The translations under genes were made by a program, and so were the position numbers. The notes beneath the pieces were generated by a model. That model did no database searches. It had not been told where the DNA came from and saw only the letters and a program-made list of their open reading frames with translations. From Verrucomicrobiota bacterium (GTDB lineage: Bacteria > Verrucomicrobiota > Kiritimatiellia > UBA8416 > SLMC01), in the NCBI GenBank assembly GCA_030018915.1, contig JASEHE010000001.1, positions 15,843 through 79,842 on the forward strand: a stretch of 64,000 nt of DNA. The letters are read 5' to 3'. How positions within the stretch are numbered: the first letter of the stretch is position 1; each line of letters starts with the position of its first letter. Below, one piece after another: positions 8,023 to 63,262 of this stretch.

Positions 8023-9035
8023 GGCGTAGTCTCTCCGGCTTTTGCGCGGCCTCGGGCCGGTTCAAACTTGTAGACGGTCACATTCATCCGCGCCTGGAGT
8101 GGTTTCTCGAGGGTCGGGCCGCTGACCACCCGGTCCTCCCGTTGCGGCCAGACCAAGCGGGCAGGAACTTTCTCCTCGGCCTTGTCCGCGCCGTCCGGCT
8201 TCGCGGCCGGCGTCCTGGCACTAGGGCGCCCTGCTGCGGCAACGTCGATCTCTTCCGCCGCCTGGGCCGGCGACGGCTTGACTCCGGTCCACTCGTTCTG
8301 CGCATCCAGGAACGTCACCACGGTGAAGGCGCCGAGTTTCGCGAGGCGATTCAGGATTCTCACGACCGAGGATTCCTTGGCTTTGAAGTCCAGCGCGAAG
8401 GACTGCCTGGTGTAGACGACTTTCTCGGCGGTCTTCGCCTCCGCCTTTGCCGGCTCCCTCGCCGCATGCCGGCGGCCGGAGGTCTCGAGCGCGCCCGGCG
8501 TCTTCTGCTCCTCGAATTCTTCACGGGCAACCCGCGTCAGCGCCGCGGCGCCTTCCTCGAAGACCGCCCGGCACACTGCCTGGACGATCAAGAGCTGCTC
8601 GTTCAGACGCATGACGTCCGTCGGAGACGGCATGATGCCTCCGGCATATTTCTCGAAGCCGAATTCGAAACGGGGCGGCAGCGCCGCGCCATGCTTCTCG
8701 GCTTCCTGGACCAGTTCCTTCTTCGCGTCGCTCAACAGGGTGAGCAGAATGGCCGGGCTGACTTGTACGACCTTGATCTCGCCCTGCCGCAGGTCGTCCG
8801 TGAGCCGCCCACGCCAGTCGGCGCAGACCTGCGCGTTCTTACGCTCGCGCTCGACGTTCTCCAGACTTGGGAACGGCTTGTTCCGATAGAAGTTGCGAAG
8901 GGTCCTCATGGCGGAATCCACGTCGCCCTTTACCGAGTTGAAGCGCTCGATCTCCCCGTAGAGCAGGAAGGCGGCCACGGCGACCAGCACCGCCACGGTC
9001 GCCGCGCCGATGATCACGAAGATGTTGGTTTTCAC
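8019..9035 (-). CDS. Amuc_1100-like / PilO-family pilus-associated membrane protein
   Basis: 338 aa, N-terminal TM (IFVIIGAATVAVLVAVAAFLLY) followed by coiled-coil, C-terminal A/P/K-rich tail. Same position (between secretin/Amuc_1099-like and PilM) and architecture as Akkermansia Amuc_1100. Confidence 0.45.
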   Translation of the reverse strand: MKTNIFVIIGAATVAVLVAVAAFLLYGEIERFNSVKGDVDSAMRTLRNFYRNKPFPSLENVERERKNAQVCADWRGRLTDDLRQGEIKVVQVSPAILLTLLSDAKKELVQEAEKHGAALPPRFEFGFEKYAGGIMPSPTDVMRLNEQLLIVQAVCRAVFEEGAAALTRVAREEFEEQKTPGALETSGRRHAAREPAKAEAKTAEKVVYTRQSFALDFKAKESSVVRILNRLAKLGAFTVVTFLDAQNEWTGVKPSPAQAAEEIDVAAAGRPSARTPAAKPDGADKAEEKVPARLVWPQREDRVVSGPTLEKPLQARMNVTVYKFEPARGRAKAGETTP

Positions 9036-10699
9036 CGGAGCCTGTCTCCGCTGGTTTCAATGGGTTTGTTCAGGCGCGCGCGAATGGTGAACTCCCAGGT
9101 GGAATCAATCAGCAGTTGGCGCTCCAGCTCCGTCTTGTCGGAAAAAAGGCCCGATTCGCGGAGCCGGTCCCGATAGACCACGATCGGCGTCTTGTCCACC
9201 GTGGCCGCCAGCTTGAGCTTATCGTCAAACCCACGCCCGACGATCTCTACCCCTTCCACACGGTCGCCGGCCGGGGCGAGCGGCCGGATCGAGTTGAGCC
9301 ACATTCCGTCCAGCAGGCACGCGTGAATCGCATCAATCATTTGCAGCCATTGCGTCCGCGTCCCGATGACCAGCGCGATCTCGTCCAGGTCCTTCTGGAC
9401 GGCCTGCTTTTCTTGCTGGACGCTCTTGAGGCGGCCTTCGATTTTCCGGAAATCCGCGATCCGTTTTCCCGCGGTTTCGAGCCGGGTTTCCAGCATGGCC
9501 CGCATCCGGTGGAAGTAGACCCACCAGCAGAGCATCGTCAGGATCAGGCCGACCCCGGCCAGGATGAAGAACGGTTGCCGGCGCCGGAGTACCCGCCGGG
9601 CCAGGAGGTCGGGCGGCATGAGGTTGATTTCAACCGGACAAGTCAAGGCCCGCCGCAGGGCCAGGCCGGCCACCTCCCCGAGGAGGTGGAGGTCCCCCTC
9701 AATGCGCTTGGGCTCAATGGACTCGTTGACGGCTATGTTGGCGAACGGGTTGAGGTATTCCACTTCGACCGTGAGCTTCTCCCGGAAGAACGTATCCATG
9801 TGCGGGATGATCGCCGAGCCGCCGGTCAGCAGCACGAGACTCGGCGGTTGACCGCCCTGCTGGCTCCGGTAGAAGTTGATCGAGCGGTTGATTTCGGCGT
9901 GGAGCCGGGTGATGACGTTGCGCGCGATCTTGGACACCCGGTTCGCCGTCTCGTTCTCCGGTCCGGCGTAGACGCCGCCGAAGGCGACGAACGCGTGAGC
10001 CAGCTTCAACTCCTCGGCCTCCTTGAAGGGAATCCCGAACTCCTTCATGAGTTCTGTCGTAATCGCGTTGCCGGCCACAGGAATGCTGCGGCTGAAAATC
10101 CGGCTCTCCTCGATGAAGATCAGGTTCGACGATCGAGCGCCGATGTCCAGAACCATGGCGCAGCCGGGAAGGCCCGGATAGTTGTAGCGGACCGTGTTGT
10201 ACAGGGCCATGGGCGCCGCGTCTATGATTTCCGGCTCGAGGCCGGCCGCCAGCACGCAGTCCGTCAGCCGCGTGATGTTCTCGATCTTGACGGCCACCAG
10301 CATGACGTTCAGGTCGTCCGGTCCTCCGCCGCTGATCAACTGGTAGTCCCAGACCACCTCGTCAATCGGGAACGGGACGTTCTGCTCGGCTTCGTAGCGG
10401 ATGATCTGCACGACCTTGTCTCGGGCCACGGGCGGCAGCTTGACGTACCGCGGGAACACCGCCTGGCCCGACAGGGTCATGAAGAGCGGCGCCGGCTTGA
10501 TGCCGCGCTCGGCCATCAACTGGCGAATGGTGGAGACAATATAGGCGGATGCGTCGGTCTCGCTCTCGGGGTCCACGTCGAGATGCCCGACGGCATAGTT
10601 CAGGAGCTCAGGCGCGCCCGATTTGGCGGCGGAGAACTCCGCCATCACAATCTTACTGGCGCCGACATCCAGGGCGATTATTCGGTCGGTTCGAAACAC
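9032..10699 (-). CDS. pilM: Type IV pilus assembly PilM (actin-like ATPase) fused to PilN-like TM/coiled-coil domain
   Basis: 555 aa. IIALDVGASKIVMAEF actin-like fold start and PilM/FtsA-like core. The C-terminal part carries a TM (FFILAGVGLILTMLCWWVYF) plus coiled-coil, as in PilN. Confidence 0.75.
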   Translation of the reverse strand: MFRTDRIIALDVGASKIVMAEFSAAKSGAPELLNYAVGHLDVDPESETDASAYIVSTIRQLMAERGIKPAPLFMTLSGQAVFPRYVKLPPVARDKVVQIIRYEAEQNVPFPIDEVVWDYQLISGGGPDDLNVMLVAVKIENITRLTDCVLAAGLEPEIIDAAPMALYNTVRYNYPGLPGCAMVLDIGARSSNLIFIEESRIFSRSIPVAGNAITTELMKEFGIPFKEAEELKLAHAFVAFGGVYAGPENETANRVSKIARNVITRLHAEINRSINFYRSQQGGQPPSLVLLTGGSAIIPHMDTFFREKLTVEVEYLNPFANIAVNESIEPKRIEGDLHLLGEVAGLALRRALTCPVEINLMPPDLLARRVLRRRQPFFILAGVGLILTMLCWWVYFHRMRAMLETRLETAGKRIADFRKIEGRLKSVQQEKQAVQKDLDEIALVIGTRTQWLQMIDAIHACLLDGMWLNSIRPLAPAGDRVEGVEIVGRGFDDKLKLAATVDKTPIVVYRDRLRESGLFSDKTELERQLLIDSTWEFTIRARLNKPIETSGDRLR

Positions 10700-24726: not shown

Positions 24727-24730
24727 AACC

Positions 24731-25319: not shown

Positions 25320-25358
25320 GGTTGCGCCCCCGCGCCGTCAATGTTCGGTTTCTTACGG

Positions 25359-26069: not shown

Positions 26070-26085
26070 TGCGGCTTGCCTCCTG

Positions 26086-26511: not shown

Positions 26512-26517
26512 GAGTCG

Positions 26518-27033
26518 TCACTCCTTCCAACTGCAGATGTCGTCGGCCGTGTGCGAAACCCCGTCCGGCCCGTCCGACCAGACTGCCACGTTGACGCCGA
26601 TCCACGGCCCACCCCCATTCAATTGCACTCGATTGTCCATGTCCGTGTCGAGCGCCACTTTGTAGACGCCCTTGGTGGTGTTTGGAACGCCCCAGGGATC
26701 GCAATAGTAAATTGTGTTGGTCCTCACGTCGAGGAACGGGATGTTCCACGGATTATTGGGGTGGGCGTTCGTGGAATCAGCGGTGACGCCTCTCAGAATG
26801 GACAGGGCGTTCGAATCCATCATGGCGATCGGCATTGGCGGAAAGGTTTTGTAGCTCAGCAGATAGGCTTTCCACGCTTCGTCGAGTTCCTTCACTTCCC
26901 GTTTGGCACGGGCGACTCTAGCCTTCTTCCGCGAATGCATGACGACCGGCAGCATCAAGCCCAGCAGGACGCCGATGATCGCGATGACCACCAGCATCTC
27001 GATCAAGGTAAAGGCTTCGATTCGCCTACCCAT
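26518..27033 (-). CDS. Type IV pilin-like protein
   Basis: Start chosen at MGRRIEA-FTLIEMLVVIAIIGVLLGLMLPVV. The upstream part of the longer ORF is R/G/A-rich and non-protein-like. Confidence 0.55.
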   Translation of the reverse strand: MGRRIEAFTLIEMLVVIAIIGVLLGLMLPVVMHSRKKARVARAKREVKELDEAWKAYLLSYKTFPPMPIAMMDSNALSILRGVTADSTNAHPNNPWNIPFLDVRTNTIYYCDPWGVPNTTKGVYKVALDTDMDNRVQLNGGGPWIGVNVAVWSDGPDGVSHTADDICSWKE

Positions 27034-27128
27034 CACACTGTTCCTTTCCGAAGCCCGCGCGGCGCCTCGTATCCCGCAACTTCGCTCCGCCGCCTTGCTG
27101 GAGACTGTGGAAAGGGCCGCCGGACTCT

Positions 27129-28249: not shown

Positions 28250-29419
28250 ATGCCCATGATCGAGAAGAAGAAGCTCTCGCAAACGATGCGGATCGATCTG
28301 ATCCCGGACGTCCCCGCAAGGCCCGTGCCGGGCAAAAAGAAGCGCTACATCGTGTCGTCCCTCGCGCCCGGGGCTACGGTCATTCGGCCGCGCGCGCCAG
28401 AGGAGACGGCGAAGGGCACGGAGTACGAGGAGTTGCTGCAGAGTCTGTACGACGCCGCCTTGATCACGGACATGGCAGGCAAAATTGTTGACGTCAATTT
28501 CCGGGCGCGGGAATTCCTGCTCTACAACCGGCATGATCTCCGAGGCATGGCTGTTTTCGACGTGATTTCCGGCGCCGACGAGTCGCTCATCCGGACTCTG
28601 GCGGCCAACCTGGCGAACGAGCGTTATACGCTCATCCAGGCGTACTGTATCCGAAAGGACGGCTCCTGCTTCCCCTCGGAAATCGCGGTTAATCGGCTTC
28701 GACTGGCGGATGCGCGGCTGTGTTTCTTTATCCGCGACACGACGTTGCGGCGTCAGGCGGACGAAATGCTTAGAACCGAGCACAACGCGATTCAGAACTC
28801 GGGCGACGGGATCGCGATCGCCGATACGAACAATCAACTGGAATACGTCAATCCGGCCGCAGCCCGGATGTGGGGATACGACGAAACGGACGAATTGCTC
28901 GCGCTCCCGGTGGCCGATCTGTGGGCCGACCACGAGGCGGCTGAGGCGATGATGAACGCTGTCACGAGCGATCGGCAGTTTTGGAAGGGCGAACTAATGG
29001 CAAAACGCAAGGACGGTTCGCTGTTCGACACGCAGGTGTCCGCCGCCTTGAACAGGAACTCGGACGGCGAGCCGGTTGGCGCAATTTTTTCCTTTGTTGA
29101 CGTGAGCGACCGCAAGCGCGCGGAAGAGGCGGAGCGCGAGGCGGAGCGCCGGCGAGTAATGCTGGAGAGTCTCGGCGCCGCCTGCCATCACCTGGGGCAG
29201 CCGGCCACGGTTCTTCTGGCCAATCTGGGCATCATGAAGAGGAAACTGGAGGGTTCTTCCACCGATACGACTGTAAAGTCGCTCCTGGACGACAGCATTT
29301 GCGCCATGGAGACATTGGGGAAGATTCTGCACAAGCTGAACGCGGTGAACGAGTACAAGACGACCAAGTACATCGAGGACACGGACGGCGCGGCATTCAG
29401 CCGGATATTGGATATCTGA
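28250..29419 (+). CDS. PAS–PAS–DHp sensor protein lacking a catalytic ATPase (HATPase_c) domain (PilS position)
   Basis: Start at MPMIEKKKLSQTMRIDLIPD. The first PAS (YEELLQSLYDAALITDMAGKIVDVNFRAREFLL...CFFIRDTTLRRQADEMLRTE) is a close paralogue of the PAS of the hybrid kinase at 59891-61561. The C-terminal AACHHLGQPATVL aligns with the HisKA H-box (SHELRTPL). No G1/G2 ATP-binding boxes follow. Confidence 0.65.
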   Translation: MPMIEKKKLSQTMRIDLIPDVPARPVPGKKKRYIVSSLAPGATVIRPRAPEETAKGTEYEELLQSLYDAALITDMAGKIVDVNFRAREFLLYNRHDLRGMAVFDVISGADESLIRTLAANLANERYTLIQAYCIRKDGSCFPSEIAVNRLRLADARLCFFIRDTTLRRQADEMLRTEHNAIQNSGDGIAIADTNNQLEYVNPAAARMWGYDETDELLALPVADLWADHEAAEAMMNAVTSDRQFWKGELMAKRKDGSLFDTQVSAALNRNSDGEPVGAIFSFVDVSDRKRAEEAEREAERRRVMLESLGAACHHLGQPATVLLANLGIMKRKLEGSSTDTTVKSLLDDSICAMETLGKILHKLNAVNEYKTTKYIEDTDGAAFSRILDI

Positions 29420-29448
29420 CTGAGCCTTTTGAAAAAGCCTGAAAACGG

Positions 29449-29480
29449 AAAGACAACCTCGCGACGAGGTTGTCTTTCTC
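29449..29480. terminator. Bidirectional intrinsic terminator hairpin between convergent PAS-sensor and pilA genes
   Basis: AAAGACAACCTCG-CGA-CGAGGTTGTCTTT, a perfect 12-13-bp stem flanked by an A-run (5') and TTTCTCC (3'). 30 nt after the PAS gene stop and 50 nt after the pilA stop. Confidence 0.5.
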
Positions 29481-29530
29481 CACCTTCTTGCTGAGAAAGC
29501 CTCAGCAAGAACCCAGGACCGTCAACGCTA

Positions 29531-29926
29531 CTAGTCGATGTAGACGTGTTCCGGGAAAGAACCTACCACCGGGCACGTAGGCGTTTCGTCAACGCGGTTA
29601 ACGTAGTAGTATTGAACAGTCGCTTGGCCGGCCCCAGCTTCGAGACACTCCAGAACGTGGGTGCCATCTATGTAGGGGTCCAAGTTCGACCAGGCGGTTG
29701 CGTCGTTCGCGCCGGCTGATTGACCAATAATCTGCCCGTTTGTCCAATCGAGCTTGATGGCCAGCACTTCCTTGGCGTGGTCAATCAAGCGCAGGTTATT
29801 GACGCACAGTCCCCGACGCGCATCCTTGCGATACTGCAGAAAGGCGGGGATGGCGATCGCGGTCAGCAATGCAATAATCGCCACCACGATCATAATCTCC
29901 ACCAACGTGAAACCTCTTTTCTTCAT
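29531..29926 (-). CDS. pilA: Type IVa major pilin
   Basis: 131 aa. MKKRG-FTLVEIMIVVAIIALLTAIAIPAF (short leader, Phe+1, Glu+5). GGAGGAG RBS directly upstream. Sigma54 -24/-12 promoter ~100 nt upstream. Confidence 0.75.
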   Translation of the reverse strand: MKKRGFTLVEIMIVVAIIALLTAIAIPAFLQYRKDARRGLCVNNLRLIDHAKEVLAIKLDWTNGQIIGQSAGANDATAWSNLDPYIDGTHVLECLEAGAGQATVQYYYVNRVDETPTCPVVGSFPEHVYID

Positions 29927-30021: not shown

Positions 30022-30036
30022 ACGGGAACGAGCAAT
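30022..30036 (-). promoter_or_regulatory. Sigma54 (RpoN) -24/-12 promoter for pilA
   Basis: Plus strand reads GCAA-TACTT-GTGCCA, i.e. TGGCAC-N5-TTGC on the minus strand, an exact match to the GG-N10-GC consensus. It lies ~96 nt upstream of the pilA ATG, next to a PilR-like sigma54 activator gene. Confidence 0.55.
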
Positions 30037-30316
30037 ACTTGTGCCAAGCACAAGACGAAAACGCCAAGCCGGCATCACAACGCTCAACAATTTAGAATTC
30101 GCAAGGAATGTTACTTTATGCGAACAAGATCAATCTCGACAATGAGAACACAATGGATCAATAATGAGAGTCGTTTTTCGCAAAAATGAACCCGGTTCTG
30201 CTCGGAAATAACAAGAATGTGCGCCAGCCTGAACTGAGATACGGCTAATCCCGCATGCTGGACTGATCGGATTCAGACTCAAAGCCACCCCCACCCCGAA
30301 CCCTGAACCCTCACTC

Positions 30317-31711
30317 CTATTCTCCTTCCACCGGGTGCTTTGCCTCTTCGCCATCAGGAAGCTTGCGGTAGAGAGTGGCCAGACTGATCTTGAGCGCTTT
30401 TGCGGCCTTCTCCTTGTCGCCATTCGCGACGGAGAGGACCTGCTTGAGGTACTCCTTCTCCTTGGTTCGAAGGAAGGCCTTCAGGGACTTCGCTTTCGTT
30501 GAATCAATGTCTTCCGCCCCAAGAGGTTTTGAAGTTTGTATCGGCGTGACGGCTATCTTCGGAGGAAGCACATCCTTGGTGATCTTGTTGTCCCGCGCAA
30601 AGGTGATGGCATGCTTGATGGCGTTTTCCAGCTCTCGGACGTTCCCCGGCCAGGGATAGGATTCGAAGATTGCCGATATTTCCGGATCGATCAAGGGAGG
30701 GGGCTGCCCCTGCGGAGTCTCGGTGCGTAGAAAATGAGAAACAAGCAGCAGAATATCCTCGCGTCGTTCCCGTAGTGGCTTGATCTCGATGGGGATAACG
30801 TTCAGCCGATAGAAGAGGTCCTCGCGGAACTTGCCTTCCTGGATCATCTTCTCGATGTTGGTATTGGTGGCGGCAATGACGCGCACGTCAATGGGGACAT
30901 CCTTGTTACTGCCGACTCTGCGGACTTCCTTCTCCTGAAGCACGCGCAGGAACTTGCCCTGGATACTGAGCGGCATGGAGGAAACCTCGTCAAGGAAGAC
31001 GGTGCCGCCGACCGCGGCTTCCAGAAGGCCTTCTTTGTTGGCCGTGGCCCCGGTAAAGGATCCCTTTACGTGCCCGAACATCTCCGATTCCAGGAGGGGC
31101 TCCGGGAGCGCCGCGCAACTGACCGCCAGGAAGCGCTTGTCGCGGCGCTGGCTGTGCGCATGAATGGCCTTGGCAACCAGTTCCTTACCTGTTCCGCTCT
31201 CGCCGTAGATCAGCACAGCCGTGTTTGTGGGCGCGACTTTCTTGATCATTTCGCAGACATTCTGCATGGCCTTGCTCTCGGCCACGATGTTATTCAAGTG
31301 GTATCGCGCCCCGAGCTGGGCCTTGAGGTAGACGTTCTGGACCCGCAACTTGCTGTACTCCAGGGCGCGCTGGACGGTGATGAGGAGTTCGTCCACTTTA
31401 AAGGGCTTGGTGACGTAGTCGAACGCGCCGAGCTTCAGAGCCTCGATCGCGGTCTCCACGGAACCGTAGGCGGTAAGCATGACGACCGGCAGGGCGGGTT
31501 TTTCGTCATGGACGCATCGGAGCAGTTCCATGCCGCTGATGGGCGCCATGCGGATGTCAGAAAGCATGAGGTCGAATTCCTGGCTCGCCAGCAATTCCTT
31601 GGCCTTCTCGCCGCCGAGAGCAGGAACAACATCATGCCCCTCTGCCTTGAGAAGAGTGCTGAGAACGCTCAGGATACTGGGCTCGTCGTCAATAAGGAGT
31701 ATTTGGGCCAT
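30317..31711 (-). CDS. pilR: Sigma54-dependent response regulator (NtrC family; PilR-like)
   Basis: 464 aa. REC domain (ILLIDDEPSI...D54-like), AAA+ sigma54-interaction domain (GESGTGKE, GAFTGA-like ESEMFGHVKGSFTGA), C-terminal HTH. Confidence 0.85.
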   Translation of the reverse strand: MAQILLIDDEPSILSVLSTLLKAEGHDVVPALGGEKAKELLASQEFDLMLSDIRMAPISGMELLRCVHDEKPALPVVMLTAYGSVETAIEALKLGAFDYVTKPFKVDELLITVQRALEYSKLRVQNVYLKAQLGARYHLNNIVAESKAMQNVCEMIKKVAPTNTAVLIYGESGTGKELVAKAIHAHSQRRDKRFLAVSCAALPEPLLESEMFGHVKGSFTGATANKEGLLEAAVGGTVFLDEVSSMPLSIQGKFLRVLQEKEVRRVGSNKDVPIDVRVIAATNTNIEKMIQEGKFREDLFYRLNVIPIEIKPLRERREDILLLVSHFLRTETPQGQPPPLIDPEISAIFESYPWPGNVRELENAIKHAITFARDNKITKDVLPPKIAVTPIQTSKPLGAEDIDSTKAKSLKAFLRTKEKEYLKQVLSVANGDKEKAAKALKISLATLYRKLPDGEEAKHPVEGE

Positions 31712-31862: not shown

Positions 31863-33083
31863 TCAGCCCTTCTGCACTATTTCGCCGATCTTGAAGATGG
31901 GGAGAAACAGGCAGACGACAATTCCGCCGATGAGCACGCCGAGGATCACCATAAGCAGCGGTTCGAGCAGGGAGGTGAGGCCAGCCAGGGTGGTTTCAAC
32001 TTCGTCGTCGTAGAAGTTGGCGATGTTGTCCATCATCTCGTCGATTTTCCCCGTCTTTTCGCCGGCCTGCAGCATGCGCACGAGCATGATTGGAAAGACG
32101 GTCTGAGTCAGCATGGCGTTGGAAAGCGGCTCTCCCTTTTCCAGGCAGCCTCTGGCGCTCAGGACGATATTGCCCGCCACCTTGTTGCCGGTGGCGCCGG
32201 CGACGATGTCGATGGCGGTGAGGATCGGGACGCCGCTGCGAATGAGCTGTCCGAACATGCGGGCAAAGCGGGAAGACGCCACTTTCTTGTTCAAGTCGCC
32301 GAACACGGGCAGTCGGAGCGCCAGCCGGTCCAGAATGAATCCGCCCGTCGGCGTGGCCTTCCATTTTTTGAAGGCGATCACAAGCCCCGCGATGAGCAGA
32401 ACGACCACCAGCCCGTTGTGGCGGATGAGATTGCTGAGGTTCATGAGGGCCCGCGTCGGCCCTGGGAGTTCCCCGCCGAGTCCCGCGAACATGTCGGCGA
32501 AGATCGGGACCACGAAAACAACGAGGGCGGTGGCAATGGTGAGGGCCAGGCACATGACGATCGCGGGATACATCATGGCGGACTTGACTTTGCGGCGGAG
32601 TTTGGCGCTGGATTCCAGAAAACCGGCGAGTCGCGCAATGGTTTCCGGCAGTTGCCCGCCGGATTCGCCGCCCTTGACCATGTTGCGGTACAGGTCGTCG
32701 AACACCGATGGGAACTGACGCAGCGCGTCCGAGAAGGCGGCCCCGTTTTCGATGTTGCGCTTGATCTGGCCGATTGCGTATTTGAAGTTGGGGTTGTCGG
32801 CCTGTTCCTCCATGGCTTCGAGGGACGCGAGGATCGGCATGCCGGCGGACAACATGGCGGAGAGCTGGCGGGAAAAACCCGGCAGCGTCTTCTGCACGAT
32901 CTTCTTGGCGCCCGGCACTTTTTTCTTGGCGCCCGCCCTGGCGGCGGCTGGCGCGCCCGTCTTTTGCGTGGCCGCTGATGTGGAAGTGGAGACGGCAGGG
33001 CGAACCCCGGCCGCTCGCGACACGACAGGACTCATGGCGCATGTCTCCTTTAAGCAGTCGGCGCGTTTCCCAGGCAGAGCCAA
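31863..33083 (-). CDS. pilC: Type IV pilus / T2SS inner-membrane platform protein (PilC/GspF family)
   Basis: 406 aa. Duplicated GspF-type domains with three TM segments (YPAIVMCLALTIATALVVFVV, LVVVLLIAGLVIAF, LLMVILGVLIGGIVVCLFLPI). Confidence 0.8.
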   Translation of the reverse strand: MALPGKRADCLKETCAMSPVVSRAAGVRPAVSTSTSAATQKTGAPAAARAGAKKKVPGAKKIVQKTLPGFSRQLSAMLSAGMPILASLEAMEEQADNPNFKYAIGQIKRNIENGAAFSDALRQFPSVFDDLYRNMVKGGESGGQLPETIARLAGFLESSAKLRRKVKSAMMYPAIVMCLALTIATALVVFVVPIFADMFAGLGGELPGPTRALMNLSNLIRHNGLVVVLLIAGLVIAFKKWKATPTGGFILDRLALRLPVFGDLNKKVASSRFARMFGQLIRSGVPILTAIDIVAGATGNKVAGNIVLSARGCLEKGEPLSNAMLTQTVFPIMLVRMLQAGEKTGKIDEMMDNIANFYDDEVETTLAGLTSLLEPLLMVILGVLIGGIVVCLFLPIFKIGEIVQKG

Positions 33084-33098
33084 TGGGACGGGCGCCGG

Positions 33099-34874
33099 TT
33101 ACCGCGAACTCACGATCTTGAGGGCAGCTTCAAAACTGGTCTCGCCGAGCTTGACTTTCTCCAGGGCGCTCACCGAGAGCGTCTTCATGCCTTTTTGCGC
33201 CGCCCTGTCGCGCAAGGCGTCGGCGGGCGCCCGCCGCATCATCAGCAGGCGGATATCTTCCTCAATGGGGAGGACTTCCATCACGGCGGCGCGGCCGCTG
33301 TAGCCGATGCTGTGGCACTTCGGGCATCCGGAGGGCCCGTATATCTTGCAGCCTTGGAACAGCGCGGGGTCCACGTGGTGAAGCTTGAGCAGTTCCTCGG
33401 GCATGGGCGCCTCCTTCTTGCAGATCGGGCACAACTTTCGGTAGAGGCGCTGGGCCTGAGTCAGGATGATGGACGAGGCGAGCAGGAAGGGCTCAATGCC
33501 CATGTCCAGCAGGCGGGTGATCGTGCTGCAGGCATCGTTCGCGTGGATGGTGCTGAGCACCAGATGGCCCGTGAGGGCAGCCTTGATGGCGATGTCCGCC
33601 GTGTCCCCGTCGCGAATCTCGCCGATCAGCACGATGTCGGGATCCTGCCGAAGGATGGCGCGAAGCGCGTCGCCGAACGTGCAGCCGGCGGTCTTCTTGC
33701 CCGCCGTGGCGGCGTTATGGTCGCCGTGAGCGCCGGATGCGGACGAGGCCGCAGTGATTTTCACCTGGATCACGCCGGGAATCTGGTATTCCACCGGCTC
33801 CTCGCAGGTGACGACGTTCACGTCAATCTTGTTCAGCTCGCGGAGGCAGGAGTACAGGGTGGTCGTCTTGCCGCTGCCGGTCGGCCCAGTAACCAGGATG
33901 ATGCCGTGCGGCTGATTGATGGCGTAGTTCATGGCAGCAAGGGCGCGTTCGTCCAGGTTCAGGTAGGACAGGCCTGGAAAGAGCGAGTTCTTGTCCAGCA
34001 GGCGCATGACCACCCGGCCGCCGAAGATGGTGGGCAACACGCTCACGCGGACGTCAATGCTCTTGTTCAGCGTCGTGATCCGGAAACGGCCGTCCTGCGG
34101 GTGGCGCTGTTCGCCGATGTCAATGTCAGCCAGAATCTTGACGCGGGAGACGACGGCCGACTGCAAGGTCTTGGGCAGACTGGGCCGTTCGACCAGGACG
34201 CCATCAATCCTGTAGCGAAGACGCAGGAAATTCTCCTGTGGCTCGATATGGATGTCGTTGGCTCCCAGGCGCACGGCTTCGATCAGGATCATGTTGACCA
34301 TTCGGATGACGGGCTGATCGCCGGCGCTTTCCATCATCTTCTCCAGGCTCTCCGCTTCGGTCTCTTCGACGGCGCCCACTTCCATTTCGACTTCGGGGGA
34401 TTTCATGAGCGTCTCCAGGTCTACCGCGGCGCCCCGGTCGGCCATCGCGCGCCTGATGGCGTTGACGATGTCCGGTTCGCTGGCCACGAGGGGAACGATC
34501 GCCAGGTCGGTGAGCGTATGCAGCTCGTCCATCGCGACGATGTTGAATGGGTCTCCCATGGCCACCGTGAGCGTCTTGCCGATCTTGGCGACTGGGATAA
34601 GTTTGTGCCTCGCCATGATCTCCTTGGGGACGCGTTCCAGGACCTGCGCGTCGGCGGTGAAGTGAGCCAGCGATATGGGCGGGATGCCCAAATACTCGGA
34701 AATGGCGAGCGCCAAGTCTTCCTGAGAGAGCAGGCGCTTGTCGAGAAGCTCTTTCTCGATCGTGACGCCGCTGTTCAGCGCCTCCTGCTCCGTCTGCCGC
34801 AGGACATCGGGCTCCACCATGTTCCTGCGGATCAGGATGTCGGTCAGTTTGATTGGGCCGGTCTTTTTGTCCAT
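33099..34874 (-). CDS. pilB: Type IV pilus / T2SS assembly ATPase (PilB/GspE family), paralogue 1, with A/S/G-rich insertion
   Basis: N-terminal T2SSE_N domain, Walker A GPTGSGKTTT, Asp box, tetracysteine motif CPxC...CxxC. Carries an ~20-aa insertion VKITAASSASGAHGDHNAATAGKK not present in the adjacent paralogue. Confidence 0.85.
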   Translation of the reverse strand: MDKKTGPIKLTDILIRRNMVEPDVLRQTEQEALNSGVTIEKELLDKRLLSQEDLALAISEYLGIPPISLAHFTADAQVLERVPKEIMARHKLIPVAKIGKTLTVAMGDPFNIVAMDELHTLTDLAIVPLVASEPDIVNAIRRAMADRGAAVDLETLMKSPEVEMEVGAVEETEAESLEKMMESAGDQPVIRMVNMILIEAVRLGANDIHIEPQENFLRLRYRIDGVLVERPSLPKTLQSAVVSRVKILADIDIGEQRHPQDGRFRITTLNKSIDVRVSVLPTIFGGRVVMRLLDKNSLFPGLSYLNLDERALAAMNYAINQPHGIILVTGPTGSGKTTTLYSCLRELNKIDVNVVTCEEPVEYQIPGVIQVKITAASSASGAHGDHNAATAGKKTAGCTFGDALRAILRQDPDIVLIGEIRDGDTADIAIKAALTGHLVLSTIHANDACSTITRLLDMGIEPFLLASSIILTQAQRLYRKLCPICKKEAPMPEELLKLHHVDPALFQGCKIYGPSGCPKCHSIGYSGRAAVMEVLPIEEDIRLLMMRRAPADALRDRAAQKGMKTLSVSALEKVKLGETSFEAALKIVSSR

Positions 34875-34881
34875 GTCTCGA

Positions 34882-36606
34882 CTACTCGCCCCCGCCCGTG
34901 ATGCTGAGCGCGGCATCCAGACTGGTGATGCCGTCGCGGACTTTGTTGAGTCCGATCTCCTTCAGGCTGAGCATGCCCTTCTTCTTGGCGTGGGCCGCGA
35001 GGTCCTTGGAGCTCAGGCCGTTGAGGATGTCCGCGCGCAATTCCCGGTCCACGGGGAGCGCCTCCATGATGGCCATGCGACCCTTATACCCGCTGTTGCG
35101 GCATTTCATGCAGCTGCCGGCCTCGTAGGTGGTCACACCATCGAACAACTCCGGAGAAATGTTGTACCCCCGGAGCAACTTTGTCTGGAGTTCTTTGGCG
35201 GGTTTCTTGCAGGATGGGCATAGTTTGCGGAGCAGGCGCTGGGCCTGGGCCAGGATCAGCGCCGAGGAGAGGAGCGAAGGCTCCACGCCCATGTCCACCA
35301 TGCGGGTGATCGCGCTCGGGGCGTCGTTCGTGTGCAGGGTGCTGAGCACCAGGTGCCCGGTCAGCGCCGCCTTGATGGCGATGTCCGCCGTCTCGTTGTC
35401 GCGAATCTCTCCCACGAGGATGATGTCGGGGCTCTGCCGGAGCACCGACCGTAGCGCCGCGGCAAACGTCAACCCAATGAACGAATTGATCTGCACCTGA
35501 TTGACGCCCGGCAGTTGATACTCCACGGGGTCTTCGCACGTGACGATGTTCACGTCCGGTTGGTTGAGTTCCATGAGGCAGGAGTAGAGCGTCGTCGTCT
35601 TGCCGCTGCCAGTGGGCCCTGTGACGAGCAGAATGCCGTTTGGCTCCGAGATGGCCCTTCGCATGGCGACATAGGCCGCCTCGTCCAGCCCGAGCGCGGA
35701 CAGGCTCGGGAAAAGCGCCGCCCTGTCGAGAATCCGCATGACCGTTTTCTCGCCGAAAATCGTCGGCAGCATGTTGACGCGCAGGTCCACCTCCTTGCCC
35801 AGGGCTCGGAGTTTGATCCGGCCGTCCTGAGGCACGCGGTGTTCGGCGATATCCATATTGGACATCAGCTTCATGCGCGAGACAACGGCGCCCTGGAGGC
35901 TCTTCGGAGGCCCGGGAACTTCCATGAGCGCTCCGTCAATCCGGTAGCGCAGGCGCAGCGTCTTCTCCTGCGGCTCAAGGTGAATGTCGCTGGCGCTCTG
36001 GCGCAAGGCTTCCACGAGAACCATGCTGACTATGCGGACGACCGTGCTGCCTCCGGACCGTTCGATGATGGCCTCGATAGATTCGTCTTCCTCATCCCGG
36101 ACTTTCTGATGGGTGATCTCCTGGTCGGAATCGGCCTCCTTGAGGATTTCCTCCATGTTCATCCCTTCCATCTGGTCCGGGAAGGCCCGTTCGAAGGTTT
36201 CGGTGATCTCTTTCTCCGCGGCGACCAGGGGTGTGATCTCCAGCCCCGTCATCACATGCAGCTCGTCGCGGGCGATCAGGTCGAACGGATCGGCCAGCGC
36301 CACGGTCAGCGTGTTACCCATCTTGGCGATCGGGATGACCCGGCGCCGGATGAGCATCTCGCGCGACACGGAGTCAAGCAGATGGGCCGGCGGCGCAAAG
36401 TGGGAGAGCGCGATCGGAACGATGCCGAGATACTCGGCGAGGGTCAGCGTCATGTCGGATGCGCTCACCAAGTTCTTTTCCAGCAGGTGCTTCTCGATCC
36501 GGATGCCCTGGGAGAAAGCCTCATGCTCGGCCGCCGCGAGCGCGGCGGGATCGATCAACCCGCGCTTGACCAGAATGTCGGTAATTTTGCCGAGGGCCAT
36601 GGCCAT
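34882..36606 (-). CDS. pilB: Type IV pilus / T2SS assembly ATPase (PilB/GspE family), paralogue 2
   Basis: 574 aa. MALGKITDILVKRGLIDPAAL N-terminus, Walker A LVTGPTGSGKTTTLYS, GVNQVQINSFIGLTFAAALRSVLRQSPDIILVGEIRD, CPSCKK...CMKC. Confidence 0.85.
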   Translation of the reverse strand: MAMALGKITDILVKRGLIDPAALAAAEHEAFSQGIRIEKHLLEKNLVSASDMTLTLAEYLGIVPIALSHFAPPAHLLDSVSREMLIRRRVIPIAKMGNTLTVALADPFDLIARDELHVMTGLEITPLVAAEKEITETFERAFPDQMEGMNMEEILKEADSDQEITHQKVRDEEDESIEAIIERSGGSTVVRIVSMVLVEALRQSASDIHLEPQEKTLRLRYRIDGALMEVPGPPKSLQGAVVSRMKLMSNMDIAEHRVPQDGRIKLRALGKEVDLRVNMLPTIFGEKTVMRILDRAALFPSLSALGLDEAAYVAMRRAISEPNGILLVTGPTGSGKTTTLYSCLMELNQPDVNIVTCEDPVEYQLPGVNQVQINSFIGLTFAAALRSVLRQSPDIILVGEIRDNETADIAIKAALTGHLVLSTLHTNDAPSAITRMVDMGVEPSLLSSALILAQAQRLLRKLCPSCKKPAKELQTKLLRGYNISPELFDGVTTYEAGSCMKCRNSGYKGRMAIMEALPVDRELRADILNGLSSKDLAAHAKKKGMLSLKEIGLNKVRDGITSLDAALSITGGGE

Positions 36607-59084: not shown

Positions 59085-59870
59085 TCACGCGCTGATCGCT
59101 TCATTGACGGCGGCGAGGATCGAGACCGAGTTGTTGTCGTAGACCGCTTTCTTGATCGTCGTTTCCGTCCGCGCCGGGTCGAAGTCCGGGGCCAGCGAAT
59201 TCGTCTCGTCATAGAGCACAATGGGAATCCGCCGCGTGTTCGGCATCTTCCAGAGCATTTCCGCCACGCTGTCGCCGTTCATCTCGGACAGGACGTACTT
59301 CACCACGATCGCGTTGGGCTTCTGGACAATCGCCTTCTCGAGCACCTCCGGACCGCTTGCGGCGCTGTCAACCAAGAAGCCGGCGTCGGAAAACGCGTTC
59401 ACCAAGTTCTCGCGGACCATGCCGTTGTCCTCGCCGATCAGCACCTTCTTGCGAGCCGTGGCGCCCGATCCGCAGGCCGGCATTTCGGCGCCGCTGCGCA
59501 GGAAGATGATGCGCCCGACCTCCATCAGAAGATCGGCGGGATTGCACGGCTTGGCCACGAAACCGTCTACGCTCACGTTTGCGAAGAACTCCGCCATATT
59601 GGCCCGCGCCGTCAGGACCAGCACCGGGTGTTCGAGCGACCCGTCGGGTTTCGAAATCCGCTTGAGAAACCCGACTCCGCCCATTCCGGGCATGCTCATG
59701 TCCAGGATGATCAGGTCCGGCGCCATGCGCTCGAGCCGCTTTACGCCCTGCTCGCCGCTGTCCGCCGTCGCCACTTCATACCCCTCGAAGCGCAGAAAGT
59801 CGCTCAGCGTGACCAACAGGCTCGTATCGTCGTCTATCAACAGTATCTTCCGTTTTCCCTGGCCAGTCAT
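59085..59870 (-). CDS. Response regulator with two receiver domains, no output domain
   Basis: Start at MTGQGKRKILLIDDD. First REC (DLIILDMSMPGMGG) and second REC (KVLIGEDNGMVRENL...). Confidence 0.7.
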   Translation of the reverse strand: MTGQGKRKILLIDDDTSLLVTLSDFLRFEGYEVATADSGEQGVKRLERMAPDLIILDMSMPGMGGVGFLKRISKPDGSLEHPVLVLTARANMAEFFANVSVDGFVAKPCNPADLLMEVGRIIFLRSGAEMPACGSGATARKKVLIGEDNGMVRENLVNAFSDAGFLVDSAASGPEVLEKAIVQKPNAIVVKYVLSEMNGDSVAEMLWKMPNTRRIPIVLYDETNSLAPDFDPARTETTIKKAVYDNNSVSILAAVNEAISA

Positions 59871-59890: not shown

Positions 59891-61561
59891 CTAAATGCGG
59901 TCTTCCTCCGGTTCGGACTCGGTCGCGGTTTCGTTCTCGGTCTTGCTCTCGATTCGGGCCCGTTTGTTGAAAGCCGCCGCGCCCAGGAACGCTTCCTCCA
60001 GACTGTCCAAGAGGTCCGGCTCCTGCCACGGCTTGCGCAGCGCCGGGATCGAAAAGTTCCGCAGAATCTCGGCGCTCGCCCGGCTTATATGCGCCCCGGT
60101 GATCACGATCACGGGGATTCCCATCGTGCTCTTCTCGCTCTTCAGTTTCAAGATTACCTTGGCGCCGTCCATGACCGGCATCACGAGGTCGAGCAGGACG
60201 AGGTCCGGGCAGTTGCGCTTGACGCTCTCCAGCGCCTCGATGCCGTTGTCCGCGGTGATTACACGGTAGCCGCGCGCCGTCGTCTGCTTGACCAGAAGGT
60301 TGAGCACGCCCTTCTCGTCGTCCACGATCAGCAGCCGCGGCGGCTCCGCGGAGGGAAGGGACGCGTAGACTCCAGTCCCCTTCTCCCGGCCCGGCGGCGG
60401 GCTTTTGACCGAGAGCGCTCCGCCGTGAAGATCAATGATCTCCTTTGAAATCGAGAGGCCCAAGCCGGTCCCGCTCGTCTGTTCGCCCACCGTGAAATAC
60501 CGTTCCGTGACACGGTCTATCGCCTCGGGCGGAATGCCGATCCCGGTGTCTTCGACTCCAAGCTGCGTCCAGCCCGGCTGCTCCGCATGTTGCCGGACGA
60601 ACACATCAATCCGTCCGCCTTCCGGCGTGAATTTGATCGCGTTGCCGACAACGTTGATGATTACGCGCTCCATCTTGTGCGCGTCGCACTCGACGAACAC
60701 GTCGGTCGCCGGGCACGCCGTCTCCAGGGCAAGCCCTTTCTGCTCCGCCTGGACACGGAGCGAGTCCACGCTACGGCGCGCGAACCGGGAAAACGGAATC
60801 CGGACCTTGGAGAGCGCCAGAGTCCGGCTCTCGATTTTTCGCATGTCAAGGATGTCGTTCACCGTGGCCAGCAGGCGGTGACAGTCCCCGTTGAGCAGTT
60901 TGAGGTAACGCCGAACCACGTTCGGGACCGGCCCGATCACCCCGCGCAGCATGTTGTCCACCGCGTAGATCATGGAGGTCAGCGGGGTTCTCAGCTCGTG
61001 CGAGACGTTGGAAACGAACTGCGAACGGGCCTTGTCGTGCTCCTCCAGCCGGTCCACCGCCTCCTCCAGCGCCTCCTGAGCCCGGCGGCGGACCGTGACG
61101 TCGCGGACAAAAAAGCAGAGCTGGCTCTCGTCGTCCAGGTTGATCCTGTTGACGGCGATTTCCGCGGCAAATATCGAGTTGTCCCGCCGGACGCACTGGG
61201 CTTCGATCAGGGTGTAACGATGCTGCTCCAGGTTCTTGCGAATGGACTCCAGCAGACCGTCGTTGGCTCCCGAGATCAGATCAATGACCCGCCTGCCGTA
61301 GAGCTCAGTCTCGTTGCACAGGAAGAAATCCGCCGCGCGGGAGTTGAAATCGATGATCCGCCCCTTGGCGTCCGCGACCAGCACGCCGTCGTAGATGCTT
61401 TGGAGCAGTTTCTCGTAGTCCGGCGAACGCTTGAATTTCTTCCACTTCCGCGCCAGGAACGACGTGTCGTCGGCCTTGGGCATGATGTGTGTTTCCGCCT
61501 TCTTCCTTGTCAGGGACTCGCCCAGGAAGTCGGGGTGAATATCGATCCGCATTGTCCGCGC
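59891..61561 (-). CDS. Hybrid sensor histidine kinase (PAS–HisKA–HATPase_c–REC)
   Basis: Start at MARTMRIDIHPDF (paralogous to the N-terminus of the 28250 protein). H-box FVSNVSHELRTPLTSM, G-boxes DTGIGIP / GTGLGLSISK, C-terminal REC (LLIVDDEKGV...DLVLLDLVMPVMDG). Confidence 0.8.
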   Translation of the reverse strand, partial: ARTMRIDIHPDFLGESLTRKKAETHIMPKADDTSFLARKWKKFKRSPDYEKLLQSIYDGVLVADAKGRIIDFNSRAADFFLCNETELYGRRVIDLISGANDGLLESIRKNLEQHRYTLIEAQCVRRDNSIFAAEIAVNRINLDDESQLCFFVRDVTVRRRAQEALEEAVDRLEEHDKARSQFVSNVSHELRTPLTSMIYAVDNMLRGVIGPVPNVVRRYLKLLNGDCHRLLATVNDILDMRKIESRTLALSKVRIPFSRFARRSVDSLRVQAEQKGLALETACPATDVFVECDAHKMERVIINVVGNAIKFTPEGGRIDVFVRQHAEQPGWTQLGVEDTGIGIPPEAIDRVTERYFTVGEQTSGTGLGLSISKEIIDLHGGALSVKSPPPGREKGTGVYASLPSAEPPRLLIVDDEKGVLNLLVKQTTARGYRVITADNGIEALESVKRNCPDLVLLDLVMPVMDGAKVILKLKSEKSTMGIPVIVITGAHISRASAEILRNFSIPALRKPWQEPDLLDSLEEAFLGAAAFNKRARIESKTENETATESEPEEDRI

Positions 61562-61591
61562 CATTCGGTCCGGGTTATCCATAGATGTCGT

Positions 61592-63262
61592 TCACGCCTT
61601 TTCTTTCGACGCGTAGAGCAACGCCTGGATGCCCGCGTCCGGCGACCGCGTTTCCGGCACCCCGGCGATCTCGATGAAATTATCGATCAGGACCTTCAGT
61701 TTCCGCCCGCTTTCCGCGGCCAGCTTGAGCATGTCCTGCTGGGAGACCGTGACTGTCCCCAGGGCGCCGGCGGCCAATATATCGATCGAGCAACTGATGA
61801 CGGCCAGAGGCTGGCACAACTCCTGGCCGATTTCCGCCAGGATTTCGAAGAACCGCTTGCGCGATATCTGGGGCGCCTTCCCGGCGCGCGCGGCCGCCTG
61901 TTCGGCGGCGTCCGCCGCATCGCGGTCCGCCTTGAGGACCTCGACCAGGCCCTGGATTTTTGACGTGGTCTTCTGGACCAGGGTCTTGACCTCCGTGTCA
62001 ATGCTGGCGACCAGTTGCCCCACTTGCTCCTTCCGCGCGTCGGGCCCGGCCTGCGCGGCCTTGCTCGCGCTCTCCCGGATCGTCGAAATCAGCTCGGCTA
62101 GGCGCTCTCCCGCCGGCGCGGCGTCAGATTCCCCCCGGGATATCAGGCCGCTCTTGACAAGCAGATTCCGCCAGTCTTCCGCCGTGAGGCCCGAGGCCGC
62201 CAGCCGGGCCTCCAACTCCGTGTCGCTCAGCCGGTCGATCCCTTTGCCCTTCATAAAGCGCAGAAGCCGCTGCTCGTTCTTGTCGAGCGCTTCCCGCTTC
62301 TTCATGTACTCGTCCGCGAGCGCGTCAATCCGCAGCTCGTCGACCATGCTTTCCACGGCGTTGGAGAGCTTCAGTGTGTCCTCATCGCTGATCCGGCCGG
62401 ATATCTCCATGATCCGGCGTTTGACCGATCCCTCGAGCATCACCAGCGTTTTCTCCAGTTCCCTCTTCCCTTTCTGGGTCTTGACAGACGGATCCTGGGC
62501 CATCTCCTTGAACACGCGTTGGAGCGACTTCACGGCCATGCCGGTCAGGGTTTCCTCGACGGGAAGCCCCTTCTCCTCCTTCCCGGTTTCTGCGATGTCC
62601 ACGATCAACCGGCCCATCAGGCCGGAATCGGCGGTAATCTTCTTCAGATTCGCCGCGACTTCCTTGTCGCCCTCCGGCGGGTCGCCTTTCAGGAAGGACA
62701 CCAAGACGTCAACGTCGCCTTGGCCGGCCGCGACGATCTGGGCCATCTTTTCCTGTGACAAGACAACGTCGCCTTCATCAATTCGCTTGTAGATCATTTT
62801 CTTGGCTCTGACGTGCTCGATGTTGGCTGAGACGAGCGCGCTGCTCACCCCGCCGAGCTGCCTCAGTTCCTCCAGCTTGGCGTTGAGGACTCCCATAAAC
62901 CTGGCAAACCGCTCTGGGGCCAGGCCCCGCTCCATCGAAAAGCTAGGCGACTCGATCTTGACGAGATGCCGCACAAACGAGTCGGTCATTGGGTTTCCGG
63001 TGTCAATGGCGGTCCCGTTGACCATCAGGACGTCGTCCATAACGCTGAAATCGACCTCGCTGCAGGTCTCCAGGGCCTTGCCGACCTTGGCGAAAGCGTC
63101 GTCCACTGACTTCCGGGTGACATTGTGGCTCAGCCCATAGAGCAAGGCGTTGGAACGGACGAGCGCCAGCGAGCGCACGATGGCTTCCGCCTCCTCGGGC
63201 GCCGGGGCGTTGACGGGCGCGTCGGCATCAGAAGCCGACGACGGTTCGGTCTTCTCGCTCAT
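61592..63262 (-). CDS. Coiled-coil signalling protein with C-terminal degenerate DHp-like domain (His replaced by Gln)
   Basis: Start chosen at MSEKTEP. C-terminal FFEILAEIGQELCQPLAVISCSIDIL aligns with the HisKA H-box FVSNVSHELRTPLTSM, with Q at the His position. No ATPase domain. Confidence 0.45.
   Translation of the reverse strand: MSEKTEPSSASDADAPVNAPAPEEAEAIVRSLALVRSNALLYGLSHNVTRKSVDDAFAKVGKALETCSEVDFSVMDDVLMVNGTAIDTGNPMTDSFVRHLVKIESPSFSMERGLAPERFARFMGVLNAKLEELRQLGGVSSALVSANIEHVRAKKMIYKRIDEGDVVLSQEKMAQIVAAGQGDVDVLVSFLKGDPPEGDKEVAANLKKITADSGLMGRLIVDIAETGKEEKGLPVEETLTGMAVKSLQRVFKEMAQDPSVKTQKGKRELEKTLVMLEGSVKRRIMEISGRISDEDTLKLSNAVESMVDELRIDALADEYMKKREALDKNEQRLLRFMKGKGIDRLSDTELEARLAASGLTAEDWRNLLVKSGLISRGESDAAPAGERLAELISTIRESASKAAQAGPDARKEQVGQLVASIDTEVKTLVQKTTSKIQGLVEVLKADRDAADAAEQAAARAGKAPQISRKRFFEILAEIGQELCQPLAVISCSIDILAAGALGTVTVSQQDMLKLAAESGRKLKVLIDNFIEIAGVPETRSPDAGIQALLYASKEKA

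Follow-up and report, generated by a model that had tools for sequence, protein, structure and literature searches.

A pilus-linked sensor gene in a Verrucomicrobiota genome encodes a HisKA-derived transmitter without a kinase domain

Introduction

Two-component signalling usually joins a kinase and a receiver, and a sensor that keeps only the phosphate-handling helices raises the question of what it can transmit and to which partner. Here this question is asked of a gene in a 64,000-nt stretch of a Verrucomicrobiota genome (assembly GCA_030018915.1, contig JASEHE010000001.1, positions 15,843–79,842 of the forward strand), which was analysed as a whole and is called the window below. The window corresponds to an extensive type IV pilus region. 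The gene, P1 (28250..29419, + strand), lies beside pilA and pilR, and its product is a transmitter without a kinase, in which two PAS domains are followed by a HisKA-derived hairpin, here named the X domain, and by no catalytic ATP-binding (CA) domain. To our knowledge, pilus regulation in the Kiritimatiellota and Lentisphaerota is unexplored, and PilS is missing there.

An initial annotation, made from the sequence of the window alone, had placed P1 in a network with a hybrid histidine kinase encoded 30 kb away and with the neighbour of that kinase, here called protein 3. On re-check, the coordinates and quoted peptides of all three proteins were correct. This interpretation held up in part: its components exist and are conserved, but the wiring proposed between them gained no direct support.

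P1 Is a PAS-PAS Protein without a Catalytic Domain

The open reading frame (ORF) of P1 runs on the + strand from an ATG at 28250 to a stop codon at 29419 and encodes a soluble protein of 389 aa. Its PAS-PAS-X organization was established from the ORF, Pfam and NCBIfam searches, the orthologues and an AlphaFold2 model. PAS1 (28421..28744, + strand, residues 58–165) was identified by Pfam, BLASTP and AlphaFold2, and its paralogue is the hybrid-kinase PAS domain; PAS2 (28784..29119, + strand, residues 179–290) was identified by Pfam and AlphaFold2. The X domain (29123..29416, + strand, residues 292–389) comprises a HisKA-derived dimerisation and histidine phosphotransfer (DHp) hairpin and a conserved tail of ~25 aa (NEYKTTxY...RILDI). 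When the Pfam and NCBIfam models were run, the two PAS domains were found and no match to HATPase_c was obtained even at E ≤ 1, in agreement with the initial annotation, which had described P1 as lacking the kinase catalytic domain. Neither library gave a HisKA match in P1 itself at this limit.

A CA domain that is frameshifted or encoded further downstream could be excluded, because the P1 stop codon is followed by a hairpin-forming spacer and then by the convergent pilA gene, which leaves no room for it. The 111-nt spacer between P1 and pilA folded at −48.4 kcal/mol (z = −7.1) into two strong stem-loops with stems of 15 and 11 bp (29447..29511), which are likely bidirectional terminators. 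Apart from the hybrid kinase, no CA domain was detected in the 64-kb window by tblastn and a home-made CA-domain profile. A database search recovered at least 120 orthologues of P1 with 54–75% identity, all ~385 aa long and PAS-only by domain calls, from Kiritimatiellia, Lentisphaerae, Victivallales and metagenome-assembled genomes (MAGs) labelled "Verrucomicrobiota". The possibility that P1 is a truncation, a pseudogene or a frameshifted kinase was thus ruled out by the stop codon and hairpins, by the at least 120 orthologues of the same length, and by the C-terminal position of X throughout its family.

The best-conserved part of P1 was the C-terminal region of ~100 residues. In an alignment of 30 orthologues, C312, H313, H314, Q317, P318, A319 and T320 were invariant, and the tail NEYKTTxYL...RILEI was conserved. 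The Cys-His-His triplet C312-H313-H314 (29183..29191, + strand) lies within the segment AACHHLGQPATVL (residues 310–322), and the profile alignment placed H313 on the phospho-accepting His of the histidine kinase HK853, with Q317 and P318 at positions +4 and +5. The AlphaFold2 model had a mean predicted local distance difference test score (pLDDT) of 77.6. Residues 1–55 were predicted to be disordered (pLDDT < 50) and precede the two PAS domains; the sequence shows no hydrophobic segment. The C-terminus was modelled as a helix (residues 286–333) with the His pair at mid-length, a loop and a second helix (residues 340–364), after which ~25 residues remain as two short strands of low confidence. 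In this model the C-terminal region is shaped like a DHp hairpin, and little comes after it. As modelled, P1 is a cytoplasmic sensor in which an uninterrupted helix connects the PAS pair to a hairpin for dimerisation and phosphotransfer that derives from HisKA.

The X Domain Defines a Bacterial Family of HisKA Ancestry

The best match of a profile of P1 residues 292–389 among PDB sequences was the DHp domain of HK853 (E = 0.031). The stretch C-H-H-L-G-Q-P-A-T-V of X was aligned with S-H-E-L-R-T-P-L-T-V of HK853, which places H313 over the phospho-His and Q317/P318 over the T/P pair. Taken alone this match is weak. The homology of X to HisKA was established transitively, because other members of the X family do match Pfam HisKA: 35 of 51 shorter members did so at E ≤ 0.01, and two longer members (P0169, 33.4 bits; P0231, 35.4 bits) exceeded the Pfam threshold. 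The sequence relationships indicate that the X domain is of HisKA ancestry, and the assignment of the P1 C-terminus as a DHp domain rests on the AlphaFold2 hairpin, the HK853 profile match and these Pfam HisKA matches of relatives. The intact His helix that the initial annotation had seen in P1 was thereby borne out.

In a search of 1.84 billion representative proteins, the X profile matched 1327 clusters at E ≤ 1e-3, of which 285 reached E ≤ 1e-10; clusters were defined at 50% identity, and 1327 is a lower bound. In all 149 top clusters checked among these 1327, X ended within 30 residues of the C-terminus, and none of the 149 had a CA domain after X. The family signature is GAACHHLGQPATV together with a YxT..Y...RIL.I tail, and the motif CHHLGQP is almost invariant. 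Among 150 members, conservation was 146/150 for Cys at −1, 148/150 for His at position 0, 144/150 for His at +1, 146/150 for Gln at +4 and 150/150 for Pro at +5. The rest of the H-box in X (Q at +4, P at +5, T at +7) follows the HisKA pattern. No curated model in Pfam or NCBIfam covers the family.

A Cys in helix 2 was observed in 80 of the 150 members, and the pilus-linked subfamily has Ser there (S349 of P1). The helix-2 Cys and the invariant Cys-His-His of helix 1 could form a metal or redox site.

X was found in several architectures. Besides PAS-PAS-X proteins of ~385 aa, the family includes REC-X proteins (~235 aa, REC being a receiver domain), proteins in which a predicted two-helix membrane hairpin and a HAMP-like linker precede X (~235 aa), dCache-HAMP-X proteins, proteins with three PAS domains before X, and tandem X-X proteins. 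In a further type of ~620 aa, REC-HisKA-CA is followed by the unit of membrane hairpin, HAMP-like linker and X. The ~150-aa spacer in these long members was considered as a possible receiver, and this was rejected, as its sequences instead look like a two-helix membrane hairpin plus HAMP-like linker. Two short tandem proteins (P0134 and P0143) have Tyr or Gln at the phospho-His position in the first X copy and an intact second copy. Because X follows PAS, HAMP, dCache-HAMP or REC modules, it takes the place that the DHp-CA transmitter has in ordinary kinases. Its placement behind PAS, HAMP, Cache and receiver inputs suggested that X is a general output module, for which relay, phosphatase and docking are candidate activities. 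No recurrent partner gene emerged from the neighbourhoods of other X-family members that were examined.

P1 Is Linked to Type IV Pilus Genes

The gene that converges on P1 encodes a pilA-like major pilin with an N_methyl motif (29531..29926, − strand; Pfam, NCBIfam). A sigma-54 promoter element TGGCAC-N5-TTGC (TGGCACAAGTATTGC; 30032..30046, − strand) lies ~106 nt upstream of its start codon and is the single exact match to this pattern in the window. Beyond it in the order of coordinates lies the gene of a PilR-type sigma-54 activator with REC, AAA+ and helix-turn-helix domains (30317..31711, − strand; Pfam, NCBIfam). The phospho-acceptor residues of the PilR receiver are all intact (D8/D9, D52, T80 and K102), and PilR is therefore expected to be under phosphorylation control. 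The description of P1 as a sensor in the PilS position was only loosely right: the association with pilA and pilR is real, but P1 lies downstream of pilA in convergent orientation, and the syntenic pilS slot, a gap of ~150 nt between pilC and pilR, contains no gene. Nor is there any kinase gene in the pilus cluster of this window, where the only CA domain is that of the hybrid kinase ~30 kb off.

The genomic context of P1 orthologues was counted over 80 genome loci, 49 of which were at least 10 kb long. A pilus gene was present within 7 kb of the orthologue in 31 of these 49 longer loci. Downstream of the orthologue, the block pilA-pilR-pilC-pilB was seen in L004/L005 and L006, and besides these in 10–13 of the 80 loci (two separate counts). 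PilM adjoins the orthologue in 19–22 loci and a minor-pilin-like operon in ~25; some loci have no pilus link. In one Kiritimatiellia MAG (L067), a hybrid kinase with transmembrane, PAS, HisKA, CA and REC parts (3987–5780, − strand) fills the pilS slot, immediately upstream of pilR, and it adjoins both a P1 orthologue and pilA. A pair of an OmpR-type regulator and a kinase upstream of the orthologues in L041, L051 and L056 was also considered as a partner and was judged to be an unrelated, lineage-specific neighbour.

Among the other pilus genes of the window, a pilC gene (31863–33083, − strand) and a tandem pair of PilB-like ATPase genes of the T2SSE type with N-domains of the MshEN type (33099–34916 and 34882–36606, − strand), which overlap by 35 nt, form the block 31863..36606. 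The scan of the pilus region also located a secretin gene (3992–6868) and a run of prepilin-like genes (23534–27917). A domain search identified a PilM-PilN fusion protein (9032..10645, − strand), in which the PilN motif EINLMP occupies residues 339–344 (nt 9614–9631). The fusion is 537 aa long and consists of an actin-like PilM_2 domain (residues 29–332), EINLMP and a transmembrane segment; the two parts are separate genes in related genomes. Between the pilM-secretin and pseudopilin blocks there is an ORF of 2480 aa with a signal-peptide-like N-terminus (13593–21035, + strand).

The Hybrid Kinase and Protein 3 Belong to a Separate Operon

The hybrid histidine kinase (59891..61582, − strand, 563 aa) contains the peptide TMRIDIHPD (nt 61529–61555) followed by PAS, HisKA, HATPase_c and REC domains, as identified by Pfam and NCBIfam; Pfam detected no histidine phosphotransfer (HPt) domain in it. 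P1 and the hybrid kinase shared 36% identity over 220 aa (BLASTP, E = 3e-41). The proposed paralogy of the two is thus real, but it is confined to the N-terminal peptide, the linker and PAS1 and does not cover the DHp region. When the X domain was compared with the DHp domain of the hybrid kinase by hhalign, no specific similarity was found (E = 0.27, with the wrong region aligned). A homology search with the N-terminus of the hybrid kinase returned only 10 proteins, mostly fragmentary.

Protein 3 (61592..63262, − strand, 556 aa; Pfam) is a HisKA relative without a CA domain, in which Gln replaces the phospho-His. Residues 474–532 scored 27.7 bits with Pfam HisKA, above the cut-off of 26.9 (E = 2.8e-6), and PF00512 was precomputed for 7 of 13 homologues. 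The motif GQELCQPL occupies residues 479–486, with Gln480 at the phospho-His position. QELCQPL was invariant in 12 homologues, down to 29% identity, and E481 (+1), Q484 (+4) and P485 (+5) were retained. The His-to-Gln helix reported in the initial annotation is therefore a true HisKA relative beyond chance. P1 gave a weak match to the protein 3 family that was in register (E = 0.022). Residues 22–150 of protein 3 (62813–63199, − strand) were modelled as an alpha/beta domain (pLDDT 80–94) with invariant L41, Y42, H46 and T49. This domain had no match in Pfam, and the model of whole protein 3 had no significant fold match in the PDB.

The hybrid kinase gene is followed by that of a double-receiver protein (59085..59870, − strand), in which Pfam and residue inspection indicated that REC1 is intact and REC2 degenerate. 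REC2 is a pseudo-receiver because Lys replaces the phospho-Asp (VVKYVLS, residues 189–195). An NrdR gene comes after it (58609–59088, − strand). The reported adjacency of protein 3 and the hybrid kinase reflects a conserved operon with the double receiver: the order protein 3, hybrid kinase, double receiver, NrdR was kept in L007 and L009, and it was not kept in the most distant homologue, L008. NrdR is located at 12233–12688 in L007 and at 12297–12752 in L009. The synteny thus reaches past the signalling genes, because NrdR also follows the operon in two distant relatives.

P1 and the Hybrid Kinase Share a PilN-like N-terminal Peptide

The only tie found between P1 and the hybrid kinase was the shared N-terminal peptide and PAS1. 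The peptide TMRIDLIPD of P1 (residues 12–20; 28283..28309, + strand) and its counterpart TMRIDIHPD in the hybrid kinase lie in disordered N-termini and are strongly conserved in both families; R14, I15, D16 and P19 were invariant in the alignment of P1 orthologues. The peptide resembles the PilM-binding N-terminus of PilN. The N-terminus of PilN carries a highly conserved motif that is bound by PilM (PMC5805733). The core common to the peptides compared here reads R-I/V-N/D-L-L/I-P. The (A)RINLLP of the chimera in PDB entry 5EOU aligns to the EINLMP of the PilM-PilN fusion in the window. Where PilN is encoded next to pilM by a separate gene in related loci, it begins MNLRVDLIL, and this PilN and the P1 orthologue encoded in its locus have R-(I/V)-D-L-I in common, down to the change from Asn to Asp. 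The pattern R[IV][ND][LI][LIMH]P occurred 56 times in the 1.28 million six-frame residues of the locus set, and 55 of these were N-termini of P1 or of the hybrid kinase; this count is a lead and not a test, because the pattern was defined after the motif had been seen.

Judging from these sequences, the peptide probably tethers P1 and the hybrid kinase to a common partner, and PilM is proposed as this partner. A PilN-like peptide would give a reason for the shared N-terminus of two otherwise different signalling proteins and for the frequent adjacency of P1 and pilM. We consider it possible, though rather unlikely, that P1 and the hybrid kinase mimic the PilN N-terminus, dock on PilM, which is the actin-like platform of the pilus machine on its cytoplasmic side, read the state of this machine directly and feed this into PilR-dependent transcription of the pilin gene. 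The docked proteins might compete with PilN or report its occupancy of PilM. Such a PilM-docked pair would take the place of the membrane sensor PilS as a soluble system coupled to the machine, built on a transmitter domain without CA. If the peptide does dock on PilM, this would be a new way to couple a surface machine to gene expression.

Proposed Role of P1 and Alternative Explanations

The reading that we prefer, tentatively and at somewhat less than an even chance, is that P1 is a PAS-gated DHp protein that docks the PilR receiver and exchanges phosphate with it through His313, as a relay, a phosphatase or both. The X domain would dock the receiver domain of the sigma-54 activator, and His313 would exchange phosphoryl groups with receivers in a reaction gated by the PAS domains. 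His313 could take phosphate from a phosphorylated receiver, for which the REC domain of the hybrid kinase is a plausible donor; it is the obvious local candidate because the hybrid kinase has no HPt domain. The phosphate would then be passed to PilR, or be withdrawn from it, and P1 would thereby set transcription of pilA from the sigma-54 promoter. Functionally, P1 would be like Spo0B or ChpT with sensory input added. An acidic residue at +1 of the H-box is linked to ATP-dependent autophosphorylation and an amide at +4 to His-Asp chemistry; in X the former is replaced and the latter kept. The hybrid kinase of L067, with its HisKA-CA-REC order, would need a His-containing relay protein. This reading is further favoured by the near-invariant His, by the position of X after sensory and receiver modules, and by a phosphorylatable PilR whose cluster in this window has no kinase gene. 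Beyond what was observed, namely the architecture and conservation of P1, the HisKA ancestry of X, the invariance of His313, Gln317 and Pro318, the pilus linkage, the intact PilR receiver and the sigma-54 promoter, we infer PilR as the partner, the direction of phosphate movement, the hybrid kinase as its source and the docking on PilM.

Several observations weigh against phosphotransfer between P1 and PilR. Adjacency to pilR was found in only the 10–13 orthologue loci counted above, and X-family genes are mostly orphans with no receiver gene adjoining. The hybrid-kinase operon looks self-contained, with a receiver protein of its own. Spo0B and ChpT carry a pseudo-CA domain, whereas P1 has only its short tail. 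Cys at −1 and His at +1 are as invariant as the central His, which phosphotransfer does not explain. Some X members hold a full HisKA-CA core that is joined to X through a predicted membrane hairpin and HAMP-like linker and not through a receiver; with HisKA-CA and X in one chain, direct phosphorylation of X by the CA domain fits at least as well as a receiver relay.

An alternative that is unlikely but deserves serious weight makes P1 a dedicated, PAS-regulated phosphatase of phosphorylated PilR that works without a phospho-His intermediate; an unlinked kinase would phosphorylate PilR, and P1 would be the negative arm only. The phosphatase determinants of HisKA kinases lie in DHp, and this role has been proposed for proteins annotated as "HisKA, no HATPase" (PMC5847659). 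The amide at +4 (Q317) is conserved in 146 of 150 X domains while the +1 acidic residue is lost, and bifunctional kinases enter their phosphatase state through PAS or HAMP control of the DHp conformation. The +1 acid matters mainly for autophosphorylation. Protein 3 retains E at +1, Q at +4 and P at +5 with Gln at the His position, a pattern that presumably resembles laboratory His-to-Gln alleles that are kinase-negative and phosphatase-positive. However, a dispensable His should drift as it did in protein 3, yet it is conserved in 148 of 150 members; the canonical E/DxxT/N motif is not intact in X (H at +1, Q at +4); and a scan with the home-made CA profile found no separate PilR kinase in this pilus cluster, nor in most orthologous loci. 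A quite improbable view is that P1 is a NifL-like stoichiometric anti-activator, whose hairpin binds the receiver or the AAA+ domain of PilR and holds it inactive without any phosphoryl chemistry. NifL has a PAS-PAS-DH-GHKL organization, and the DH helices take part in the contacts through which it inhibits its sigma-54 activator (PMC12998190). A NifL-NifA chain (9qq6_A) was among the best whole-protein structural matches of P1 (Foldseek rank 4, 348 aligned columns) and a weak sequence match of the X profile (E = 0.47), and the H-domain region of NifL was the best NCBIfam match of isolated X (E = 0.003). These sequence matches are weak, however, and the NifL-NifA interface requires GHKL (PMC12998190), which is absent from P1. 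A pure binding role would not require strict conservation of the H-box His, Gln and Pro, and a fully competent PilR receiver leads one to expect control by phosphorylation.

The wiring of the initial annotation, in which the hybrid kinase forms heterodimeric DHp bundles with P1 and protein 3 or trans-phosphorylates P1 through its CA domain, we regard as very unlikely. In its favour, the N-terminus and PAS1 form a module common to P1 and the hybrid kinase that is conserved in both families, the hybrid kinase has the only CA domain of the window, and the X proteins that carry HisKA-CA and X in one chain make direct donation by a CA domain conceivable. A heterodimeric four-helix bundle is argued against because X and the DHp domain of the hybrid kinase show no specific similarity, and 36% identity between paralogous PAS domains does not by itself imply hetero-association. 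The two genes lie 30 kb apart here and were never found linked in the other loci examined, and far fewer homologues of protein 3 than orthologues of P1 were detected. Because X is found across many organisms and architectures, in most cases encoded by an orphan gene, its function cannot depend on this hybrid kinase. It is highly improbable, finally, that the Cys-His-His and the helix-2 Cys of most X members make a metal- or redox-sensing site in the four-helix bundle with no phosphorylation at all. That view accounts for the conservation of Cys at −1 (146/150) and His at +1 (144/150), which matches that of the central His, and for the helix-2 Cys (80/150), none of which phosphotransfer alone predicts. 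But members of the P1 subfamily have Ser at this position of helix 2, the remaining H-box follows the HisKA pattern, and by heptad reasoning the Cys would lie in the bundle core and the His residues would be exposed as in an ordinary DHp domain.

PAS-gated phosphotransfer with PilR is thus the role we favour for P1, and the pilus-linked X subfamily is a tractable case with a clear read-out, in which PilR is the candidate partner and the sigma-54 promoter of pilA the candidate target.

Comparison with Known Systems

Compared with a class I sensor histidine kinase, P1 has the DHp hairpin and the H-box His and lacks the CA domain with its N, G1, F and G2 boxes. From its sequence, ATP-dependent autophosphorylation is not expected without that domain. 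PilS and P1 are both sensors of a pilus cluster beside a sigma-54 PilR and pilA, both have PAS and DHp domains, and both are presumed to control pilin transcription. However, PilS is polytopic in the membrane, possesses a CA domain and has its gene directly upstream of pilR, whereas P1 is soluble, lacks CA and is convergent to pilA. PilN differs from P1 and the hybrid kinase in what follows the shared peptide: a transmembrane helix and a periplasmic domain in PilN, and a soluble PAS protein in the other two.

Spo0B and ChpT have a DHp domain that forms a four-helix bundle with a phosphorylatable His, do not autophosphorylate with ATP, and shuttle phosphate between receivers; they retain a degenerate alpha/beta domain that resembles CA, and they lack sensory input. 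By prediction and alignment, P1 has the same DHp with an exposed His and no ATP binding, and it adds two PAS domains. No sequence similarity of the X profile of P1 to Spo0B or ChpT was detected in the search of PDB sequences. NifL shares the PAS-PAS-DH arrangement with P1; it is related to histidine kinases without being one, and a sigma-54 enhancer-binding protein is under its control. In NifL, however, the ADP-binding GHKL domain forms much of the interface and the partner NifA has a GAF domain, whereas GHKL is absent from P1 and the receiver of PilR is competent. DivL has a HisKA-type domain in which the phospho-acceptor His is replaced by Tyr, and it acts as a partner or regulator and not as a kinase. 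Protein 3 differs from DivL in having Gln instead of Tyr, no CA domain at all, a large N-terminal region without a recognised fold, and a conserved operon.

The closest described class is "HisKA, no HATPase" in archaea, for which a role as phosphoacceptor, phosphotransferase or phosphatase was proposed, with none of its members studied (Galperin et al., 2018; PMC5847659). Like the proteins of this class, also listed as "possible incomplete histidine kinases" in the P2CS database, P1 is a sensor with a C-terminal HisKA-like domain and a conserved His and without HATPase. The published description concerns archaea (Archaeoglobi and Methanomicrobia), whereas the X family is bacterial, has a signature of its own and is linked to type IV pili, and the P1 subfamily lies below Pfam HisKA detection, unlike the described class. 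A class of HisKA proteins without CA is thus already in the literature, and what is new here is the PilN-like peptide and a bacterial X family with pilus linkage.

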